Shown: positions 1-16,555 of the stretch, piece after piece
Numbering within the stretch: position 1 is the stretch's first letter
Layout of the letters: the number at the start of each line of letters is the position of its first letter
Assembly (NCBI RefSeq): GCF_054482595.1
Contig: NZ_CM137008.1
Reading direction: 5' to 3' (one strand)
Length of the DNA: 64,000 nt
The notes under the pieces: generated by a model
Told to the model about the DNA's origin: nothing
The model's input: only the letters and a program-made list of their open reading frames with translations
Databases searched by the model: none
Made by a program: the position numbers and the translations under genes

Positions 1-67
1 TTTTTCAAGTGAAATTCAGCAAGAGATTTCATAAAAGTGTCCTGATAATTAATTCTTTAATAAGTAG

Positions 68-349
68 TTAATCGTTTTTCTTTTGAATAACGAAGGTGGC
101 CAGACTATTGATACTGCGCATATAGGACGGGTCGTCACTTTCGCTGATCTTGATATCAAATACTTTATCCAGCAGAACGACAATTTCCGTTGCATCGACG
201 GAGTCCAGTTTAAAACCATTACCAAACAGCGCAGTATCATCATCAATTTGCGCTTCATCGCGTTGAATATTCAGTCGCTGGATGATCTCCGTTTTAATGG
301 TCATCAGAACTTCTTTACGCTGTTCAATAGCGTCATTCATGGTAGACAT
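68..349 (-). CDS. stand-alone acyl carrier protein
   Basis: 93-aa ORF; phosphopantetheine-attachment-like motif KLDSVDATEIVVLL (Ser in DSV) resembling ACP consensus DSLDTVEL; SD-like AAGAGAG upstream of ATG. Confidence 0.75.
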   Translation of the reverse strand: MSTMNDAIEQRKEVLMTIKTEIIQRLNIQRDEAQIDDDTALFGNGFKLDSVDATEIVVLLDKVFDIKISESDDPSYMRSINSLATFVIQKKND

Positions 350-370
350 AATATTTACTCTCTTATTGGA

Positions 371-919
371 TTACTTGGTTTCACGGAAATTGATAATGGT
401 GCCCTGACTAATCAGCTTTTTACCGACGTACGCGGTCACGGAATAGTGTTTAAAGCCACTGGCATCCGAAAAAGCCAATTTGCTGACAACATCAATAGAA
501 TCACCCGGATAGGCGATATCTTTAAATTTCAGGTTCTGAGCAGCCAGCACGCCGCGTACCTGGCTGCGCCGGGTACGGATAATCTCCAGCATTTCAGGGC
601 GGTGAATGCGTGCGTGAATATCACGTAACGACTTCAGCTCTTCCTCAAAACGTTCGCGCCAGATATCGCAAATGTCGGTCAGGAAAGAGAGATACTCGCT
701 GGCCTGGCCGAAGATTTCCGAAATAATCACCCCGGGCATAATCGGATCTTCCGGGAAATGCCCCAGTAGATACGGTTCGTTATAGGTGACGTGTTTCACG
801 ACACTGACAAAGCCATTTTCACCGTATTTATAATCTGCAATTTTATCGACCATCAGCAGCGGCTGACGCCAGCCGCCCATTTCGAGGAAGATTTTCGAAG
901 GAATCGTGTATTTAGACAT
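371..919 (-). CDS. 3-hydroxyacyl-ACP dehydratase, FabZ/FabA-like hotdog fold
   Basis: 182-aa ORF with LLGHFPEDPIMPGV motif matching the FabZ/FabA active-site His region; 3 bp from the upstream reductase stop. Confidence 0.7.
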   Translation of the reverse strand: MSKYTIPSKIFLEMGGWRQPLLMVDKIADYKYGENGFVSVVKHVTYNEPYLLGHFPEDPIMPGVIISEIFGQASEYLSFLTDICDIWRERFEEELKSLRDIHARIHRPEMLEIIRTRRSQVRGVLAAQNLKFKDIAYPGDSIDVVSKLAFSDASGFKHYSVTAYVGKKLISQGTIINFRETK

Positions 920-922
920 AAA

Positions 923-1684
923 TCACCGCATGACCAGGCCGCCATCGATAACGATGGTCTGGCCGACAATGTAGCTGGAGGCAGAGGAACTTAAGAAGAC
1001 GATGGTGTTCGCCACTTCTTCACATTTCCCCAGACGGCGTAACGGGATGGTACTGGTTACCGCACGGACCACTGCGCGGGATACTTTTTTCACCATTTTC
1101 GATTCAATCATTCCCGGTGCGACCGCGTTGACGCGCACGCCCCAAGGTGCCATTTCTGCTGCCAGCGTGCGGGTGAAGCCGAGGATCGCCCCTTTTGACG
1201 CGCTGTAATTCGCCTGACCGACGCTGGGGATCAGCGCTGCAATAGAGGCAACGTTAATAATGGCGGGATTTTCTGCCGCACGAAGCAGCATCAGCGCGTC
1301 TTTCGTCAGACGGAAAATGCTGAACATGTTGGTTTCGATAACCTGGGTGAAATCCTCATAGCTCATCGAGGCAAACAGGCTGTCTTTAACGATGCCCGCG
1401 TTATTCACCAGCACATCAATCTTGCCAGCTTCGCGCTCTATCTGTTCGCACAATGCGCTCACGCTCTGGGGGCAGGCGAGATCGCACTGCACAATATGCA
1501 GTTTATCGCCTGCCGGATGGCTTGCTTTCAGCGTCGTTAATTGCACGTCGTTGGATTTATAAAGCGCATAAACATCGCAGCTCTGCTCCAGATATTTTTC
1601 GCAAATACCCAGCCCAATATCACCACTGGCTCCTGTCACCAGTACGGTTTTTTCATTTAAATCATTATATTTGTACATATTCAT
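923..1684 (-). CDS. short-chain dehydrogenase/reductase, FabG-like 3-oxoacyl-ACP reductase
   Basis: Rossmann motif TGASGDIG and catalytic YSASK (YxxxK) in translation; start set at internal Met (MNMYKY) to avoid overlap with upstream gene; ORF track gives 923..1720. Confidence 0.75.
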   Translation of the reverse strand: MNMYKYNDLNEKTVLVTGASGDIGLGICEKYLEQSCDVYALYKSNDVQLTTLKASHPAGDKLHIVQCDLACPQSVSALCEQIEREAGKIDVLVNNAGIVKDSLFASMSYEDFTQVIETNMFSIFRLTKDALMLLRAAENPAIINVASIAALIPSVGQANYSASKGAILGFTRTLAAEMAPWGVRVNAVAPGMIESKMVKKVSRAVVRAVTSTIPLRRLGKCEEVANTIVFLSSSASSYIVGQTIVIDGGLVMR

Positions 1685-1697
1685 CACATATGTTGAG

Positions 1698-2066
1698 TTA
1701 ATAAACGATGACAGTCGCAATGGCGTGGGTACGGCAATGCGAAATACTCAGGGAGTTATTTTGCAACCCCTGCCCGATAAAAATTTCTTGTAGTCTTCCG
1801 GAAATAACGAAATAAGGTGCTTTGGCCGCATCATGCTTTATTTCAATATCCTGGAAACGTACGCCATCACGAAAACCACAACCAATCGCTTTAACTAACG
1901 CTTCTTTCGCCGCCCAGAATCCAGAAGCCCGTTCATAATCAGGTTCTGCAGGATTAATGAGTAAGCGCTCATGAGCAGTATAAACACGCTCATAAAAAGC
2001 CATCTCTCCATTAATAATGGCTTTGGTTATTCTGGCAATTTCAACAATATCTGTCCCTATTCTCAT
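1698..2066 (-). CDS. holo-ACP synthase (AcpS-family 4'-phosphopantetheinyl transferase)
   Basis: 122-aa ORF; [13 protein letters not shown] and [11 protein letters not shown] motifs align with E. coli AcpS ([21 protein letters not shown]). Confidence 0.8.
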
Positions 2067-2081
2067 TAGTCTCGTTATCCT

Positions 2082-3701
2082 TTACATTTGGTACGAAAAA
2101 TTAAAATTTACATTCACCCGATCAATATCTAATGTCGCCGGGTACTTTAATGGGGTAGAAACGGAAAAGTTATACTCAAGACTTTTTATGTTTCCATCAA
2201 TACCAACTGCCGCGCCCACCAGTGATTCATCGCCATAAGAAGCGTCCTGATACACTTGCCCAAAATCAAGACCGGCATAATAATTAGCTTTCATTCCAGG
2301 CAAAGGAAATGCCAGCGTGTTTTTTATATAAAAACCATCATTCCCTGACAAACCTACGCTATTTTCAAACCCGCGAATACTCCAACGATCGCCAACTGTA
2401 ATTTGATCTTGCAAAGTCAGTTCACGCGGTGCGTACTGGGCAAAAAAAGCGGTATTGTAATATCCATTCTCTATTTGTCGGGTATAGTTACCCTCAAAAT
2501 TAAAGATATTGCTTACCGGGCTAACGTCGCCATATTGCATATCCGGCGTTTTTTCACCACCGAACCAGGTTAAAAAGCGTTGCCACGAGAGGGTTGAATC
2601 CCAGAACTCGCCGGGTAACTGTTGCTTATAATTTAGCCCCAACTTGATATTTCCCATATCCCGCGCCTGTAATGTCAGCTCCTCACCATTAAGCGTGTAA
2701 TTCGACTTTCGTCGAATGAGTTCTGCACTCCCGGCGAATTTTTTTGTTTTATCGCGATAAACGGTACGCGTCGCCTTTGCGCTCAAGTATTCGCTGGTGC
2801 CAACATAATCCAGCGAGATGTACGAAAGCGGAATCACCTGCTGCGATTTACTTTTGCTATAGAAAAAGCCGTACTCCCAGTACCCCACCGGAATGGAATA
2901 ATAACTACTGACGTTTTCATACTGTCCGGTAGTACTACGCGTACCGGCGAGATAAAACAGATCCCCCATTTTCGCTGGATTAAACAGATAACCCACCGCG
3001 GTTGTCTGGTAACGGCCCGTTTCTTCATCGCCCCAATTATTGTAACTTGCCCGAACGCTCCAGTTTTTCCCCCGGTGTGTATCAATATGAACGATGCTGT
3101 AACCATCCCGTGTTCCCGGTTCAATATTAATTTTCACATCAACGTCAGGTACTCGCTGAAGATTTTCCAGCCCCTGTTCAATATCGCGAATATTGAGAAT
3201 ATCGTTACGCTGAAAAGGTAACATCCATTCACTGATATCATTACCTTCCACAATCGTTTTTTCTATCTTCCCGGCATTAACCTGGAAACGTAGCTTGCCT
3301 TTAGAAATATCCTGTGAAGGAATACTAATTCGCGTTGTGATATATCCGGCATTAATATAATAATCCTGCAAGGCAGCAGCAATTTTTTGCACACCAGCAC
3401 TACCGACACAGCGTCCGGTAACTGCTTTATGTACTTCAGAAATCAACTGACCACCCAGAAAGTTATCTTCCAGTTCAATCCGATTAATGATAAAGCAATT
3501 CTTTTCCTGCGGCAGATCACCCAGAGTAAACGCATTACGTTGTGCATTTGAGTAAACATCTTTTTTTTCTAATTTATGCGCGCGCAACGTGCTTTCATCT
3601 GCATTTTTTTGCTGCTTGATCAAATTATCAAGACTGTCTTTCGCTGCAACTTGAAAACAACAAAGAATGAGCAGCAAACCAAAATTAAATCGTAATTGCA
3701 T
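2082..3701 (-). CDS. two-partner secretion outer-membrane transporter, TpsB (ShlB/FhaC/HecB family)
   Basis: 539-aa ORF with N-terminal signal peptide, POTRA-like region and C-terminal beta-barrel with RGF-type motif (WSIRGFENS); ends in aromatic-rich C-terminus. Confidence 0.85.
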   Translation of the reverse strand: MQLRFNFGLLLILCCFQVAAKDSLDNLIKQQKNADESTLRAHKLEKKDVYSNAQRNAFTLGDLPQEKNCFIINRIELEDNFLGGQLISEVHKAVTGRCVGSAGVQKIAAALQDYYINAGYITTRISIPSQDISKGKLRFQVNAGKIEKTIVEGNDISEWMLPFQRNDILNIRDIEQGLENLQRVPDVDVKINIEPGTRDGYSIVHIDTHRGKNWSVRASYNNWGDEETGRYQTTAVGYLFNPAKMGDLFYLAGTRSTTGQYENVSSYYSIPVGYWEYGFFYSKSKSQQVIPLSYISLDYVGTSEYLSAKATRTVYRDKTKKFAGSAELIRRKSNYTLNGEELTLQARDMGNIKLGLNYKQQLPGEFWDSTLSWQRFLTWFGGEKTPDMQYGDVSPVSNIFNFEGNYTRQIENGYYNTAFFAQYAPRELTLQDQITVGDRWSIRGFENSVGLSGNDGFYIKNTLAFPLPGMKANYYAGLDFGQVYQDASYGDESLVGAAVGIDGNIKSLEYNFSVSTPLKYPATLDIDRVNVNFNFSYQM

Positions 3702-3789
3702 TATCTTCTCAAACTAAATAAAGACAGCAGCAACCCCTGCGTGACATGACGCATTAATATTAAAAGCCACTGCTGTCTTTGGTTACATC

Positions 3790-6700
3790 TTACATGCCGA
3801 CAATAGTACCGGTGTTATCAGTTTCGTTTGCTTCTAACGCTAAACCGTAGAAGCCACCGAGAACAGCGTCTTTACCGCTATTCGTAACCTTATTTGCCGA
3901 TACGACAGCGACACCATAACTCAGCATATTGAGGTAGTTATAAATATTACCGGTGGTTTTAACACCCAGAGAATAATCACCCACAATATTTCCACGGTTA
4001 TTAATGTCATTCACGGCATTGATCGCGATGGTTTGTCCCAACATATTACTGTTGCTGTTGTTGGTAACATACTTCTGCGTATCAATAGTCAGCGCAGTAC
4101 CCGCCACAATGTCTTTAAAGTTCTCAACACCGTTCAGGGCATTAATGGTCAGCGCGTTGTCCGCCGCGATGGCATTACGGTTATACAGCGTGCCTTTCAG
4201 AACATTGAAATGCACATCTCCTTTACCGCTGATCCAACCATAGTTAGTGACACTGTTATCAACGCTCAGATCCAGGTTTTTGTCAGACGCAATCACGCCA
4301 GTGGCGGTATTGTCTTCCAGGCGACCATCGCTGGCGTTGTTCAACGACGCCGCATAAACGTCGAGATTACCGGCGCTGTACGTGGTGGCATAGTTGTTGT
4401 AGAACGTCCCTGCCGCACGGATGATGGCATCAGCCCCACTGCTGAGGAGCGCGCGGGTATTATCCAGCGTTCCTTTGGATAGCAGATTAAGCGGACCATT
4501 TTCAGCGATGATGCTGCTGTTATTGTTGTTGACGTTCTGAGCAGAAAGCGTGACACCTTCTTTACCTACGATGCCGCCAACGTTGTCGGTGATCCCAAAC
4601 AGCGCGCCGTTATTACGCAGGAAGTTATTCCCGTCGCGGTTTTCGAGGTTGCCGCCAGCGTTAATAACCAGCTTTTTATTCGCCGCGATCAGCGCAGTGT
4701 TGTTGTAAATCGTCGATTTAGCATCGACAGAAACATTCTCACCGGCAATCAAACCATAGGCGTTGTCTACGATGTTCGCCGTCAGAGTCACGTCGCCCGT
4801 TTCAGAGGTCAGCGAACCCTTATAGCTGTCGTAGTTGCCCGTCAGTGCCAGCGTGACATCGCCATAACCACGAATTTCACCGTTATCGTTGTTCAGATTG
4901 TTGCCTTTAACAGACAACACGCCGTTCAACGCATGCAGATTACCGCGGTTGTTACCCACGTTACCCTTCGAATCGATAATCAGATCGCCTGTCGCTTCGA
5001 TGGTCGCGTTATTGTTCGCCACGCTATTTGCCGACAATGCGATATCCCCATACCCTACCATATAGAGATAGTTATACAGGTTGCCTTTGGTCGTCACGTT
5101 CAAGTCAGCGTCACTGACAATGTTGCCACGGTTGTTGATATCGTTAACCGCGTTAATAACAATATTCTGCCCCACCATATTGCTGTTGGAGTTGTTGGTC
5201 ACATGGCGATTGGTGTTCATCGTCAGGTCGCCGCCAGCAGAAATATCCTTCCAGTTTTCAATACCGTTCAACGCGGCAATATCCAGCCCCTTTTCAGCCG
5301 CAATGGTATTGCGGTTATACAGGTTGCCGTTATTCACCGTGACATCAACATCGCCTTTACCGCTGATCCAGCCGTAGTTGGTAAGGCTATTCACCACTTC
5401 CAGTGACAGGTTTTTATCAGATGCTATGAACCCGGTCGCATTGTTATCGATCATCGTACCGCTGCTGCTGTTTTGCAGCGTGGTCGCGTCGATATCCAGG
5501 TTGCCCGCACTCCAGGTGGTAGCGTAGTTGTTGTAATACGTTCCGCCAACCTGAATAGATGCATCCGCCCCGCTGGTGACCAGAGCACGCGTGTTGTCGA
5601 ACGTGTTCTGTGCCTGGAGAGTCAGAGGACCATCCTCAGCGATAAGACGACTGTTGTTGTTATAGATGTTCTGCCCGGAAAGCTCGATGCCTTCCTTGCC
5701 GACCATTCCACCCGTTTGCTGAGGCATGCCGAAGTACAGACCATAAGCGTTACCGAAGTTATTGCCATCGCGGTTTTCGATACTGCCGCGCGCATTTATC
5801 TTCAGTTTTTTGCTGGCCACGATCAGCGCTGTGTTGTTATTGACGCCAGACATCGACTCCATCGTGATGTTCTGCCCCATCATGAAGCCGCCGTGGTTGT
5901 CCACTGAGTTGGCTAACAGGGAGATATCACCTTCTTCAGAGCTGATCACGCCAATGTTATTGGTCAGGCTGCCGCCAACGGCGACTTCAATACCCTGCTT
6001 ACCGCTGATCCCCCCGGTATCGTTACGCAGTGAGCTTCCCTTGATAATCACTTTGCTGTTGGACAGAATTTTGCCCGCATAATCGTCGACCGTGCTGTAA
6101 CTTGACAGGGAGACGTTGCCATTAGACGCAATCTGTCCGCCGTTGTTATTGATGTTGTTCGCACCAATTTCTACGCCGGTATCTGCAATAATGCCCAGAG
6201 AGTCAGAACTGCCGGTATCGGCGGTTTTGGTTGAACCATTATTTACGCTACCTGCCGCACCAATAACGATATGCCCGGTGGACGAACGGATCAGACCTTT
6301 GTTGTTATCCACATTACCGTTACTGATAATGGCGATATCGCCGGTGGTCTGAATATCACCGTTGTTGTTATTCAACGCAGCGGATTCAAGACCCACATAA
6401 CCGCCGCGAATCTGACCATTGCTGTTGTTGAGCGTTCCGGTTTTCAGCGCCACGAGCCCCGCTTCAATCCCGACAGAACTCCCTTTACCAGAGTTAATCA
6501 GCGTGGCGTTATTGGTATCAACCGCCAGCATACCTGCTGCGGCGAGCTTGCCGTTGGTGTTATCAATCGTGCCACTGTTAACGTAGATATCGCCCATCGT
6601 GGAGATGTTACCCGCACGGGTATTCACGATAGTATTCTTGTTGGTATTGAGCGAGATAGTGCCTACAGATGTCACCGTACCGGTGGTGTTATCCAGAGTA

Positions 6701-7602
6701 CCATTTGTCGTCAGGTTGATCGTGCTTGCAGACTGAATCTGGGCGTTACTGTTTAACAGATTACCTTTGGAATCGATGCTGACACCATTAACCCCACCTG
6801 CGATAACGCCCAGGTTGCGAACCCCTACACCTTTCTCGGTGCTGACCAGACTGATTTTGTTCGCATACATTCCGCCCAGTTTGGCAACATCTACGCTGTA
6901 ACCGTTACGGTAACCCGTGGCGGATACGCTACCGGTTACCTGGCCTGCGGCGTTAACATAGTTATTACCAGCAACAACGTTCAGCTCATCGGCAGACACT
7001 TTGCCGTTAACCACCACGTTACGGGACAGAATTTCTGTCGGGCTGGCGTTATCCAGTTTACCGAGCGTAATGGTACCGCCGTTCACGGAGTAACCGGCCA
7101 GCTTGTCATCCTGGATATCCGGCGTCCCGGTGGTTAAGGTCAGTTTACCTGTATTGATTGAACCGCCACCGTTTACAGTAATACCATTCGGGTTGGCAAT
7201 AATCAGATCCGCTTTATCCCCTGCAACTTCCATCATCCCATTAATGGTTGAAGGATTTTTGGAAGTAACCTCATTCAGGATCACCTTCGCCGACCCAGAG
7301 GTCAGATTACTGTTTCCCTGAATATTTCCGGCAAGTGAAGTATTGGATTCATTAGCGCTGTTATTGAAAACGACACCATTTTTATCAACGTTTAGGTTAT
7401 CCCAGATATTATGAGATAAACCGCTACCGTTAGGTTTGTTGATATCAACGACTGGCACACCATTGGCGTTATATACCGTTCCATTTTTTATGACTAATCC
7501 CGCCGCTTGAGAAGCTACAGGAAAAGACAACATCATAAGTATAGCAATAGGGGTTAATGCTTTACCCACCGTTGCTTCCTTACTTAAATTTATCATCGCC
7601 AC
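3790..7602 (-). CDS. filamentous haemagglutinin/haemolysin-like TpsA exoprotein
   Basis: 1270-aa ORF; extended signal peptide, TPS secretion domain with ANPNGITVNGG motif, Asn/Gly/Thr-rich beta-helix repeats; no distinct C-terminal toxin domain visible. Confidence 0.85.
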   Translation of the reverse strand: MAMINLSKEATVGKALTPIAILMMLSFPVASQAAGLVIKNGTVYNANGVPVVDINKPNGSGLSHNIWDNLNVDKNGVVFNNSANESNTSLAGNIQGNSNLTSGSAKVILNEVTSKNPSTINGMMEVAGDKADLIIANPNGITVNGGGSINTGKLTLTTGTPDIQDDKLAGYSVNGGTITLGKLDNASPTEILSRNVVVNGKVSADELNVVAGNNYVNAAGQVTGSVSATGYRNGYSVDVAKLGGMYANKISLVSTEKGVGVRNLGVIAGGVNGVSIDSKGNLLNSNAQIQSASTINLTTNGTLDNTTGTVTSVGTISLNTNKNTIVNTRAGNISTMGDIYVNSGTIDNTNGKLAAAGMLAVDTNNATLINSGKGSSVGIEAGLVALKTGTLNNSNGQIRGGYVGLESAALNNNNGDIQTTGDIAIISNGNVDNNKGLIRSSTGHIVIGAAGSVNNGSTKTADTGSSDSLGIIADTGVEIGANNINNNGGQIASNGNVSLSSYSTVDDYAGKILSNSKVIIKGSSLRNDTGGISGKQGIEVAVGGSLTNNIGVISSEEGDISLLANSVDNHGGFMMGQNITMESMSGVNNNTALIVASKKLKINARGSIENRDGNNFGNAYGLYFGMPQQTGGMVGKEGIELSGQNIYNNNSRLIAEDGPLTLQAQNTFDNTRALVTSGADASIQVGGTYYNNYATTWSAGNLDIDATTLQNSSSGTMIDNNATGFIASDKNLSLEVVNSLTNYGWISGKGDVDVTVNNGNLYNRNTIAAEKGLDIAALNGIENWKDISAGGDLTMNTNRHVTNNSNSNMVGQNIVINAVNDINNRGNIVSDADLNVTTKGNLYNYLYMVGYGDIALSANSVANNNATIEATGDLIIDSKGNVGNNRGNLHALNGVLSVKGNNLNNDNGEIRGYGDVTLALTGNYDSYKGSLTSETGDVTLTANIVDNAYGLIAGENVSVDAKSTIYNNTALIAANKKLVINAGGNLENRDGNNFLRNNGALFGITDNVGGIVGKEGVTLSAQNVNNNNSSIIAENGPLNLLSKGTLDNTRALLSSGADAIIRAAGTFYNNYATTYSAGNLDVYAASLNNASDGRLEDNTATGVIASDKNLDLSVDNSVTNYGWISGKGDVHFNVLKGTLYNRNAIAADNALTINALNGVENFKDIVAGTALTIDTQKYVTNNSNSNMLGQTIAINAVNDINNRGNIVGDYSLGVKTTGNIYNYLNMLSYGVAVVSANKVTNSGKDAVLGGFYGLALEANETDNTGTIVGM
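3853..5907 (-). repeat. internal tandem duplication inside tpsA (two diverged ~1.13 kb units)
   Basis: Protein residues ~566-872 and ~944-1250 align (e.g. NNTALIVASKKLKINARGSIENRDGNNF vs NNTALIAANKKLVINAGGNLENRDGNNF; TNYGWISGKGDV in both); DNA segments near 4180-4330 and 5285-5440 are visibly similar. Confidence 0.6.
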
Positions 7603-7863
7603 TAACGTTTTCCTTATTGATGCTATTCATTTTGGACATGCAGATCACTTTTGATGACTCACGGAATATCAGCAAAAATGATTGCGGCAAATCCTATCAC
7701 CAGGCGCAATAAAAAATCACGAAAAATAAGCTGAAATAAGGACTCAAAAAACAACTAAGAGTTATTGTTTTTTCATCGAACGGCGAAGTACCTAACTTAC
7801 TAAAACACAATAATTTAAAAGTTTCCCATCCTTCCTCCTTGGGTGAAAAAAATCCAATTTAGA

Positions 7864-7914
7864 GGATGTCTGAAATGATATGTAGTTTTCTGTACGACAT
7901 CATTTCAGACATCC
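7864..7914. repeat. perfect 16-bp inverted repeat (GGATGTCTGAAATGAT / ATCATTTCAGACATCC) with 19-bp spacer
   Basis: Read directly from sequence at 7864-7879 and 7899-7914; lies ~260 bp upstream of tpsA start in a 1.4 kb AT-rich intergenic region. Confidence 0.6.
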
Positions 7915-8993
7915 GAATAAAACAACAAAGTTGGTGAGCTACAATTAATTTAAATCTTGTCATTTGATTAACAAAGCATCAGCATTACTGCATCTTATTC
8001 TCTATATCTTTTACGTCGGGGTAGATTCGTTATGGTCATTACGGGCAGGCACCATTTCATTATATTACCATTTGCATTCACGCTTGTAACCCTTAAGAGT
8101 TATATAAAAGGAAATAGTTCTTGCTCATGGTAATACTGAGATCGGATTAACCATGAGGTTAGCTATATAGAGAGAGCTTTGGCTTTGCGACAATTGGCTT
8201 AAGCAGCCACATTATGTCTGGCTTATCGTTGAAAGATAGAAAGATGGGCAAAACGGTTTTACAAGGTTTCATTCCCATCTAATAGCAATCACCGCTATAC
8301 ATCATCCCTTAACGTACTCTGGCCTTCATAAAAATGTTATTCAAAATTAAAGATTGTAATGATTTTCATAATGTTGTTATTATTTTGCAACAAATAAATC
8401 TAACACAATGATTATTAGCTATTTTTTATTAGTTAAGAGGAGTTGTTTTTTACAGACTGCGCTATAATTCCGCTCATTTTTCACCACAGGAAAAGCTGAA
8501 GTAATCTTAAATGACTGTATTAACCCTTTTCTCCGCTGCCAGCACTCTTATATATCGTTGTTTTATTCTTATAAAAATGGTTTTTTTGACATAAAAAGTA
8601 ATAGGTTCAGCCATTATGCAGAATTTACAACCTGATAAAATCGCAAAAACCCTCCTTACCCAGAATAAAAATCTGATCATCATCTTTCGGTAAGAATTAA
8701 ATTACTATATTACCGTTCAACATCAGTATGAATGAAAATTCAATTGTTATACATGTGATGAATGTCATATATTGTGCTCATCGATTGCAGGACATCGCTA
8801 TTCTTTTAGAGATACAGATATCACGCTGTTACTCTCTATATAAAGAACACACAAAGATTAGTTGTGTTACTGCAGTTGTTATGTCGCATATGGAAAGCCC
8901 ATTGTTACATCTTTAGTAAAAAGATTTATTCACTTTCAAAATTTTTACTGCATGAAGATGGGCTGTTTTGCTGCAAGCAATTGAGTTAGTGCA

Positions 8994-9617
8994 ATGAACA
9001 AGAACTTACTAACAAGGGTAATTATCATTTCGGATGATCTATATTACCTTCAGGGATTAAGTGCAAAACTAGGTCACCATTATCGTTTTTTTATTGAGTG
9101 TTTTTTTTGTTCTCAAAATGCATGTAATAATGACCTAAGTACACTTAGATTTGATAACCGCTTTACCAAAAACGTACTTCTTGTCGCAGTGGATGACGTA
9201 AGTATACTTGCAAAACTGCCAGATTTGGCCAGGTTTTTAATGATTGTTTCACTAAGAAAGATGAAAAACAGAAATATCTTCTTTTCACTTTCAGAGCAAA
9301 CATTCATTAGCCGATATATAAAATTGAATAAACTCATTACTTTGATTAAAAGCACTGATAAAGACCAGCAAGTCAGGCAGGTGACTCTGACAAGGTATGA
9401 GTGGGATATCTATTACTTATATTTTAAGATAGATAACAAAAGAATATTGCACACCCTGCTAAAAAAGGATGTCAAGTATATTAGTCACTATAAAATATCA
9501 GTTTTTAACAAGTTTGAAATTGCTTGTGATAGTGATGGCTTTTACATTTTCAAGGCACTTATACAGTTAAGGAGATTTACCGGTTTTAAAAACGTCAGAT
9601 TGTATCAATTGCATTAA
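8994..9617 (+). CDS. putative fimbrial operon regulator (LuxR/MatA-like, tentative)
   Basis: 207-aa AT-rich ORF immediately upstream of the pilin gene; C-terminal LTRYEWDIYYL...ISVFNKFEI loosely resembles a LuxR-type HTH; architecture parallels ecpR/matA-type regulators; weak. Confidence 0.4.
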   Translation: MNKNLLTRVIIISDDLYYLQGLSAKLGHHYRFFIECFFCSQNACNNDLSTLRFDNRFTKNVLLVAVDDVSILAKLPDLARFLMIVSLRKMKNRNIFFSLSEQTFISRYIKLNKLITLIKSTDKDQQVRQVTLTRYEWDIYYLYFKIDNKRILHTLLKKDVKYISHYKISVFNKFEIACDSDGFYIFKALIQLRRFTGFKNVRLYQLH

Positions 9618-15763: not shown

Positions 15764-16555
15764 TTAACGAATTGAATATCCACCATCAATGACTAATAGT
15801 TGTCCATTGACATAATCTGAAGCGGCACTGGCGAGGAACACCATTGCGCCCATAAGATCCTGTGCCCTTCCCCAGCGTTGAGCCGGTATACGCCCTTTTA
15901 TTAACTCTTTTATTTTAGGGTTATTATAAATAATAGCGGTCATTTCACTCACATAATATCCTGGGGCGATACCATTAATCTGAATATTATATTCCGCAAA
16001 ATCATCGGCATACGCTTTGGTCAGCCCCGCTAAAGCATGTTTAGTCGCCGCATACCCTGGCGACCAACGTCCACCATGAAATGACAATACGGAACACATA
16101 TTAATAATTTTCCCTTTTCTTTGCGGGACAAATATATTCAATGCGGCCTGGCTCATATCGAATGCAGCATTCAGGTTGAGATTAATCATCGGATCCCAGT
16201 CGTTTCGATTGAAATCGATAGGACGATTAATGTTACACACGCCCGCGTTATTGACCAGAATATCTAACTGACCGAAACGCTCCAGACACCTATTAATAAT
16301 GGTACATGCTGCATCAGGTTTTGTTATGTCAATTGTCATAAACTCAACTTCAACGCCTTCATGAGTTAAATGCTTTAAATATTTATTATCAGGCTCTTTG
16401 ATGTCTACCAACAACAGATTAGCCCCTGCTTTGGCCAGAGCCGAGCATAAGCCTCTCCCCAGTTCACCCGCGGCCCCAGTTACGATGGCCACCTTGTTAT
16501 GTAATGAAAAAAAATCCAATGAAAAATCTTCAATAGAAAAGCTCATATCACACAT
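15764..16555 (-). CDS. short-chain dehydrogenase/reductase (KduD/FabG-like)
   Basis: 263-aa ORF; Rossmann motif VTGAAGELGRG, NNAG, catalytic YAATK. Confidence 0.8.
   Translation of the reverse strand: MCDMSFSIEDFSLDFFSLHNKVAIVTGAAGELGRGLCSALAKAGANLLLVDIKEPDNKYLKHLTHEGVEVEFMTIDITKPDAACTIINRCLERFGQLDILVNNAGVCNINRPIDFNRNDWDPMINLNLNAAFDMSQAALNIFVPQRKGKIINMCSVLSFHGGRWSPGYAATKHALAGLTKAYADDFAEYNIQINGIAPGYYVSEMTAIIYNNPKIKELIKGRIPAQRWGRAQDLMGAMVFLASAASDYVNGQLLVIDGGYSIR

Follow-up and report, generated by a model that had tools for sequence, protein, structure and literature searches.

Genes at the head of the locus

The stretch of DNA analyzed here (the window) comprises 64,000 nucleotides of contig NZ_CM137008.1 from NCBI RefSeq assembly GCF_054482595.1, and its first genes encode a two-partner secretion (TPS) pair followed by enzymes that act on acyl chains. 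The pair consists of the exoprotein OtpA, encoded by otpA (the tpsA gene of the locus), and the outer-membrane transporter OtpB, encoded by otpB (tpsB). They stand at the head of a 17-gene module that adds a predicted line for lipid synthesis and export to the secretion pair, and that is inherited and has moved as one unit. Six same-strand genes of the module lie in the window (Table 1); the minus-strand open reading frames (ORFs) are all present on ORF listing and translation, and they match the RefSeq annotation of an identical Escherichia coli chromosome. The gap between tpsA and tpsB is 88 bp, and those that follow are 15 bp (tpsB to acpS), 13 bp (acpS to reductase), 3 bp (reductase to dehydratase), 21 bp (dehydratase to acyl carrier protein, ACP) and 35 bp (ACP to GcvT-like gene). 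The short gaps of 15, 13 and 3 bp reported in the initial annotation of this DNA were thus reproduced from the gene coordinates. Its start for the cluster, at position 49, belongs to an out-of-frame shadow ORF (49-258), and the ACP gene ends at 68. For the reductase, a longer reading frame with a TTG start at 1720 differs from the annotated start.

Table 1. Features at the start of the window, with position, strand and description.
Feature	Position	Strand	Description
otpA (tpsA)	3790..7602	-	1270 aa, signal peptide and N-terminal TPS domain, beta-helical exoprotein
otpB (tpsB)	2082..3701	-	539 aa, Omp85-type outer-membrane transporter, POTRA_2, POTRA_3 and ShlB barrel
acpS-type 4'-phosphopantetheinyl transferase	1698..2066	-	122 aa
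FabG-like 3-oxoacyl-ACP reductase (SDR)	923..1684	-	253 aa
FabZ/FabA-fold dehydratase	371..919	-	182 aa
Dedicated acyl carrier protein	68..349	-	93 aa
GcvT-like gene, first codons	1..32	-	remainder beyond the window start
tpsA-tpsB spacer	3702..3789	-	88 bp
Non-coding region upstream of otpA	7603..8993	.	presumed promoter/regulatory region of the module

Both members of the pair have the features of type Vb secretion. The TPS domain of OtpA was matched by TIGR01901 (E 1.3e-21) and PF05860 in NCBIfam and Pfam, and by the sequences of Fha30 (E 2e-35) and HpmA (E 3e-33) in the PDB; the protein also carries the motifs VILNEVTS and ANPNGITVNG. OtpB contains POTRA_2 and POTRA_3 domains and a ShlB domain (Pfam, E 4e-69), and its gene lies directly downstream of tpsA. 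The secretion pair in the window is the published OtpA/OtpB, from the same locus, and has been described as a genuine TPS system (PMC5422565; bioRxiv 10.1101/2020.04.13.038984). Its function is listed as 'unknown' (PMC5422565), and that paper attributes the dependence of OtpA secretion on OtpB to Choi et al. 2007/2009.

OtpA is an all-beta-helix exoprotein without a toxin domain. Residues 898-1241 are 59% identical to residues 520-863 (344 aa; ~67% identity at the DNA level), and the TpsA form of 1270-1295 aa, found in E. coli, Enterobacter and Aeromonas, arose via this internal duplication. The basic length of the family is ~850 aa and most orthologues have no duplication. An alignment of 20 TpsA members has a conserved internal motif, GxYLGMPNQxGG.

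Genes predicted to act in synthesis and export

The assignments of the lipid genes in the window come from family searches. The AcpS-type 4'-phosphopantetheinyl transferase (PPTase) scores 79.6 bits against TIGR00516 (NCBIfam cut-off 59.8), and the FabG-like protein, a short-chain dehydrogenase/reductase (SDR), scores 226 bits against NF009466 (NCBIfam cut-off 222). The dehydratase matches PF07977 and has the motif HFPxxPxxPG; FabZ models cover its residues 17-80 only, and the extra sequence past this core is accompanied by a weak ApeI-like match. The ACP has the serine motif LDSVD, a weak PP-binding match, and matches to several ACP models (E 1e-11 to 1e-7), all of them under the curated cut-offs.

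The suggestion in the initial annotation that the cluster may pass the window start was borne out on the identical annotated chromosome (locus L001 7273-20032), where 11 more same-strand genes extend over 12.8 kb and include predicted ketosynthases (KS) and a malonyl transferase. Their order is GcvT-like protein, a fusion of KS and chain-length factor (CLF), a second KS, a CLF-fold protein, an ABC ATPase, a 218-aa periplasmic protein, a permease, a LolA-like protein, a barrel, FabD and YcdU. The GcvT-like protein has GCV_T and GCV_T_C domains and scores well under the curated GcvT cut-offs. The KS-CLF fusion (852 aa; L001 16240-18798) is matched by the FabF model at E 1e-135 (452.7 bits, under the curated cut-off of 493.75) and by NF005589 at 434.7 bits (cut-off 387), and Cys162, His294 and His330 are present in its N-terminal half. 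On reading of its sequence, the second KS-like protein (407 aa) has the Cys and the first His, and Tyr replaces the second His. FabD was recognized by its model at E 2e-52, under the curated cut-off.

The CLF-fold protein, hyp317 (317 aa; L001 14062-15015), was assigned by fold prediction. It has Gly-Glu at the position of the ketosynthase active cysteine, as does the CLF half of the fusion; the classical chain-length-factor residue is glutamine. The possibility that hyp317 is an off-loading acyltransferase was rejected on the basis of this Gly-Glu.

Taken together, the ACP serine and its PPTase, the Cys-His-His ketosynthase with a CLF partner, and the malonyl transferase are those of a discrete (type II) fatty-acid synthase (FAS) or polyketide synthase (PKS). 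A ketoreductase (KR) and a dehydratase (DH) are present, and none of the 17 genes matched an enoyl reductase family in Pfam or NCBIfam, which leaves the full reducing cycle incomplete; there is also no thioesterase among the 17 genes. The product is thus probably an unsaturated (polyene-like) or hydroxylated acyl chain, as neither enzyme is encoded. An SDR gene beyond the fimbrial operon adjoining otpA (window 15764-16546) was considered as a candidate enoyl reductase and set aside, because it resembles the FabL-like gene of the related cluster L033 only as SDRs in general do.

Several of the remaining genes point to a dedicated exporter. The ABC ATPase matches the LolD model (E 8e-68; 228 bits against a cut-off of 308), the permease has MacB_PCD and FtsX domains (LolCE model, 93 bits against a cut-off of 362), and the LolA-like protein matches PF17131 (TP_0789-like). 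Between the ATPase and the permease lies hyp218, the exported 218-aa protein, which has no family, and the barrel gene product hyp462 is an 18-strand outer-membrane barrel by fold prediction. No significant Pfam or PDB sequence match was obtained for hyp317, hyp462, hyp218 or YcdU, and it was only fold prediction that resolved hyp317 and hyp462. The module has no LolB, and the system is not an equivalog of the Lol lipoprotein pathway. YcdU is a polytopic inner-membrane protein whose gene overlaps the FabD stop by 4 bp. It is homologous to the ORF following FabD in distant clusters (hidden Markov model E 2.8e-24) and the ycdU gene, an orphan in E. coli K-12, therefore belongs to the pathway.

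Conservation and mobility of the unit

The extent of the module was assessed by searching a single genome from each species with the GcvT-like protein as marker, which gave 33 loci. This marker family is narrow, with approximately eight 50%-identity clusters above 325 bits, beneath which scores fall to those of generic GcvT relatives. The marker is at least 56% identical in 24 of the loci, all of which keep the order tpsB-AcpS-KR-DH-ACP-GcvT-KS-CLF-KS-CLF-like-ATPase-hyp218-permease, and the LolA-like gene, the barrel and FabD come next wherever the contig reaches far enough. A tpsA gene, and with it the complete order from tpsA to FabD, is present in 22 of them (the other two being Kosakonia loci), and the identity of TpsB to OtpB ranges from 44 to 66%. 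The taxa include Kosakonia, Enterobacter, Mixta, Izhakiella, Buttiauxella, Tenebrionibacter, Leclercia, Silvania, Serratia, Klebsiella, Rahnella, Pantoea, and an Acinetobacter. The unit from tpsA to FabD is likewise found in a Neisseria sp. and in Aeromonas veronii, where its flanks are unrelated, and the flanks of the Acinetobacter copy are different as well. With more than 24 species sharing this order, chance juxtaposition is excluded.

Other measures show the same association. In 25 of 26 loci, tpsB and acpS are separated by 10-23 bp; in the remaining locus, tpsB is truncated. Pairwise identities of TpsB track those of the lipid genes (r 0.69-0.83, compared with 0.77-0.88 for the lipid genes among themselves), and OtpB homologues occur in the same taxa as the GcvT-like marker, several of them on contigs whose length equals that of the marker's contig.

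The clearest delimitation of the unit is provided by pEC105227L, a 322-kb IncFII plasmid of Enterobacter bugandensis. Here, two identical IS6 transposase genes in opposite orientation (L044 4758-5450 and 26976-27668) bracket exactly the genes from tpsA to the ycdU homologue, with nothing else enclosed, and the arrangement looks like a composite-transposon-like mobile copy of the module. Another copy, in Rahnella sikkimica, is on a 549-kb replicon. Most of the 'plasmid' matches in this search were chromosome-sized records, and only these Enterobacter and Rahnella replicons were informative.

The module has the organization expected of an operon. Genes beyond the window start are on the same strand and either overlap or lie no more than 73 bp apart, and no coding-strand terminator-like site was found at the gene junctions, the two minus-strand matches falling inside tpsA and inside the ACP gene. 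In these respects, the tightly packed same-strand unit described in the initial annotation, with a private ACP, PPTase, reductase and dehydratase behind the TPS pair, is upheld. Match counts in promoter and terminator scans were not above those in shuffled sequence, and internal promoters are therefore neither supported nor excluded. A short hairpin in the tpsA-tpsB spacer, TGCGTCATGTCACGCA at 3738-3753, has no T-run and is possibly an mRNA-processing or stability element. Judged from the spacing and conservation of its genes, the ~20.5-kb block of 17 genes from tpsA to ycdU is most likely expressed as one long transcript.

The presumed regulatory region upstream of otpA (Table 1) spans 1.39 kb, is AT-rich (32-35% GC), and is common to otpA and a divergent fimbrial operon. 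It contains no ORF longer than 62 aa, and an Rfam search of window positions 1-9200 gave no family. Approximately 0.9 kb of the equivalent upstream region is kept inside the IS6-bounded Enterobacter copy. The region is a likely site of silencing or complex regulation.

A proposed partnership between lipid and exoprotein

Co-inheritance of this kind makes a link between the lipid and the exoprotein likely, and the gene content suggests a route by which it might operate. AcpS would prime the private ACP and FabD would load malonate onto this discrete type II line. The chain would then be extended by the fused KS-CLF and by the second KS with its CLF-fold partner, with the FabG-like reductase and the FabZ-like dehydratase processing every round, and the GcvT-like, folate-type enzyme may contribute an additional step. 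YcdU would hand the product over at the inner membrane, from where the MacB/LolCDE-type ABC transporter with its small periplasmic partner, the LolA-like carrier and the 18-strand barrel could take it to the cell surface. OtpB would secrete OtpA in parallel. Outside the cell, OtpA would bind, present or be activated by the exported lipid, rather than being acylated in the cytoplasm in the style of RTX toxins.

An extracellular meeting of the two, in which OtpA binds the lipid or is activated by it, is judged somewhat more probable than not, since the module appears to have its own route across both membranes and the parts for acylation are missing. A more specific proposal, that OtpA is the dedicated extracellular partner of the polyketide-like lipid of its own operon, which it might carry or present, or which might activate or modify it as an effector, is put forward tentatively and falls a little short of probable.

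The initial annotation had offered lipid tailoring or acylation of the exoprotein, with RTX toxins as the precedent, or a lipid cofactor. A related model is that an acyl chain from the private ACP is covalently attached to OtpA before or during export, by an HlyC- or CdiC-like reaction, and that the Lol-like transporter handles the lipidated protein. There is precedent for such chemistry, in that CdiC puts 3-hydroxydecanoate on a lysine of class IV CdiA (PMC8510554). The dedicated ACP and PPTase lie directly behind tpsB, with no thioesterase in the module the chain has to be passed from the ACP to an acceptor of some kind, and Lol-type machinery normally moves lipid-anchored proteins. However, no module gene matched an HlyC/TAAT acyltransferase in Pfam or NCBIfam, and the proteins left unassigned by these searches are the CLF-fold protein, the exported 218-aa protein, the barrel and a membrane protein. 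Across the alignment of 20 TpsA members there is no invariant or nearly invariant lysine, and no invariant cysteine either. The signal peptide of OtpA is ordinary, with no lipobox cysteine, and the lipid line persists where tpsA is absent. Covalent lipidation is accordingly judged quite improbable, and RTX-type acylation of the exoprotein is not supported by these results. The 'lipid cofactor' option fits better than covalent acylation. In addition, the four lipid genes of the window are not a tailoring cassette for the exoprotein, as had been proposed, and instead form part of a complete discrete PKS/FAS-like line with a three-compartment exporter.

Variants and limits of the association

Different forms of the cluster show how far the association with the TPS pair extends. 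A second cluster type, with a marker only ~41% identical, occurs in Proteus, Morganella and Providencia (L027, L031, L032, L034). In this Morganellaceae variant a TpsA of 834-846 aa is encoded 64-81 bp before acpS, and the biosynthetic genes and ABC transporter are kept. The Morganellaceae TpsA aligns end to end with the 849-aa TpsA of the Neisseria sp. (32%, E 2e-110), and its best matches outside its own clade are OtpA orthologues; the association between TpsA and the lipid genes is therefore older than the split of the two cluster types. Two candidate ORFs upstream in the Proteus locus were tried as tpsB and have no similarity to OtpB.

Several observations weigh against a partnership between OtpA and the lipid. 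The Morganellaceae variant has no tpsB, LolA-like gene or barrel, the three parts required for passage through the periplasm and outer membrane. TPS genes are absent from deeper relatives of the lipid core (Desulfatitalea, the 3.5-Mb genome CP051183.1 and two metagenome contigs), in which FabD and a YcdU-like membrane protein are found ahead of acpS. The lipid core is also found without TPS genes in Serratia rubidaea, where genes are decayed, and in Enterobacteriaceae bacterium B14. Kosakonia pseudosacchari and K. quasisacchari (L007, L008) keep tpsB and the lipid genes and have no tpsA, and in Enterobacter mori (L003 6334-7614) tpsB is truncated to 426 aa beside intact lipid genes. It follows from these cases that the TPS pair is not required by the lipid line. 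Conversely, orphan OtpA-like genes occur in Serratia fonticola (L042 10001-12532) and in one metagenome contig (L043 10001-14140), where they are surrounded by housekeeping genes and neither tpsB nor lipid genes lie within 10 kb. Secretion of OtpA was reportedly reconstituted by OtpB alone in the work of Choi et al. 2007/2009; if OtpB sufficed, secretion is independent of the lipid genes. Finally, the analysis establishes the gene content of the module with its folds, order, spacing, conservation and mobility, and we infer co-transcription, the nature of the lipid, the direction of export and the partnership of protein and lipid from genomic context, as applies to all the statements on function made here.

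Further variation was noted in these searches. Two species have two tandem tpsA genes (L010 197-6196, L011 199-6240) with lipid genes that look intact. The B14 cluster includes a FabL-like enoyl reductase gene (L033 19268-20026), and has fimbrial genes, not TPS genes, upstream. A 969-aa protein ahead of a distant cluster (L041) was inspected as a possible TpsA and is not TpsA-like.

These variants bear on the explanation that an adhesin-like TPS pair and the lipid genes have independent functions. On this view a single joining event, in an ancestor of the enterobacterial clusters, was followed by co-inheritance and co-transfer of both as a compact island, with neither product needing the other. 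Loss of tpsA or truncation of tpsB beside intact lipid genes, the TPS-free deeper relatives and the orphan OtpA-like genes would all be expected in that case, as would the lack of an identifiable enzyme joining lipid to protein, and the original authors considered a link of OtpA to the upstream fimbrial locus instead (bioRxiv 10.1101/2020.04.13.038984). Against this, gene order and the 10-23-bp spacing have been kept down to 44% TpsB identity and through transfer into beta- and other gammaproteobacteria. An orthologous TpsA is encoded directly before acpS in the second, much diverged cluster type, and the IS6-bounded unit holds only these 17 genes. In other genera, the fimbrial operon that lies beside otpA in E. 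coli has not been conserved, which argues against OtpA serving the fimbrial locus. With these points in mind, fully independent functions are considered somewhat unlikely, and the preferred reading remains an extracellular partnership between OtpA and the exported lipid. The link between TPS pair and lipid genes is strong, and it is not exclusive.

Genomic setting and remnants in E. coli K-12

The neighbours of the module on one side are ycdU/tRNA-Ser/ghrA/csg in the annotated neighbourhood and, on the other, the fimbrial operon, a winged-helix regulator, an EAL protein, dgcT and pgaABCD. The first 8.5 kb of the window is 100% identical in several E. coli chromosomes (from urine, avian and O157:H16 isolates) and has 98.3% identity to O157:H7 genomes. 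On the basis of this identity and of its position between ycdU/tRNA-Ser and dgcT/pgaABCD, the locus is O-island 47 of E. coli O157:H7, which spans z1528-z1556 (PMC8565820). Reviews describe O-island 47 as confined to O157:H7, O55:H7 and O145:H28 (PMC10877973). The part of the island in window positions 1-8500 was present in ~7% of complete E. coli genomes. Of 5426 genomes, 381 have at least 80% of the lipid part and 378 at least 80% of the part from the TPS genes to the ACP. The module itself is far more widespread than the range given in the reviews.

Fragments of the module are more common still, with 2625 of the 5426 genomes matching some part of the lipid region; the short matches that were sampled are FabD fragments of 344 or 529 bp adjoining ycdU. 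In K-12, ymdE is a 388-bp 3' remnant of the FabD gene, interrupted by IS3 (PMC4951805). This agrees with the idea in the initial annotation that ymdE is a relic of such a cluster, the FabD-like gene being located at its distal end. The orphan membrane protein gene ycdU and the pseudogene ymdE of K-12 are the last two genes of the module (L001 7273-9197), left over.

Significance and comparison with known systems

OtpAB, a model of TPS secretion for close to twenty years, has had no known function, and O-island 47 has been studied mainly for the regulator GrvA. The OtpAB pair itself is published, and the genes of the module are annotated in hundreds of genomes; the island is said to have been labelled an 'adhesin and polyketide or fatty-acid biosynthesis system' by Perna et al. 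2001. A search of the searchable literature found no account of the 17-gene unit as conserved and mobile, of its exporter, of the proteins assigned here as CLF-fold and barrel, of the second type of cluster, or of ycdU and ymdE as remnants, and no discussion of the attachment of OtpAB to lipid genes or of its spread over more than 24 other species. The position of OtpAB at the head of a mobile lipid module in Enterobacter, Klebsiella, Kosakonia, Serratia, Rahnella, Proteus, Acinetobacter, Aeromonas and a Neisseria sp. offers a lead to its function, and the module points to an uncharacterized surface lipid in many clinical and plant-associated Enterobacterales. It also explains ycdU and ymdE of K-12 as leftovers. 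If cooperation between protein and lipid is confirmed, the accessory functions of type V secretion would no longer be limited to single glycosyl- or acyltransferases and would include an entire biosynthetic line. This would be the first TPS system built into a pathway for lipid biosynthesis and export, and would provide a function for OtpAB, ycdU and ymdE.

Accessible earlier literature treated the OtpA/OtpB pair alone or speculated on a link to the fimbrial locus, whereas here it is attached to 15 downstream genes for lipid synthesis and export. Other TPS loci also have accessory genes, for example HMW1ABC of Haemophilus and EtpBAC of enterotoxigenic E. coli, in which the third gene encodes a glycosyltransferase. 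The module resembles these in that accessory genes extend a TPS operon, and differs in having 15 lipid synthesis and export genes in place of the one glycosyltransferase. Class IV CdiB/CdiA-CdiC systems (PMC8510554) and RTX toxins with HlyC are similar in tying a TpsA or toxin locus to acyl-ACP chemistry. These CdiC and HlyC systems use one TAAT/HlyC enzyme and the housekeeping ACP, whereas the module has its own ACP, PPTase, KS, KR, DH and malonyl transferase, together with an exporter.

The biosynthetic genes share only generic parts with aryl polyene clusters, namely KS/CLF, KR, DH, ACP and LolA-like proteins. Family searches of the module found none of the aryl polyene markers looked for, namely an adenylating starter enzyme, ammonia lyase, MMPL transporter, glycosyltransferase and lysophospholipid acyltransferase. 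Unlike aryl polyene and ishigamide-type highly reducing type II PKSs, the module has a GcvT-like protein, a MacB/Lol-type ABC transporter, a barrel, YcdU and the TPS pair. The exporter is similar to LolCDE/LolA and MacAB in having a separate ATPase, a permease with MacB_PCD and FtsX domains, and a periplasmic LolA-like protein. It differs from LolCDE/LolA in scoring under the curated Lol cut-offs, in having an 18-strand barrel as partner and no LolB, and in being encoded inside a biosynthetic cluster.

The activity of the Serratia haemolysin ShlA, secreted by ShlB, depends on a phospholipid cofactor that is bound non-covalently, and ShlA is the model for the partnership proposed here. In this comparison, ShlA has a pore-forming C-terminal part and draws on bulk membrane lipid, whereas OtpA is a bare beta-helix for which the lipid would be made by its own operon.

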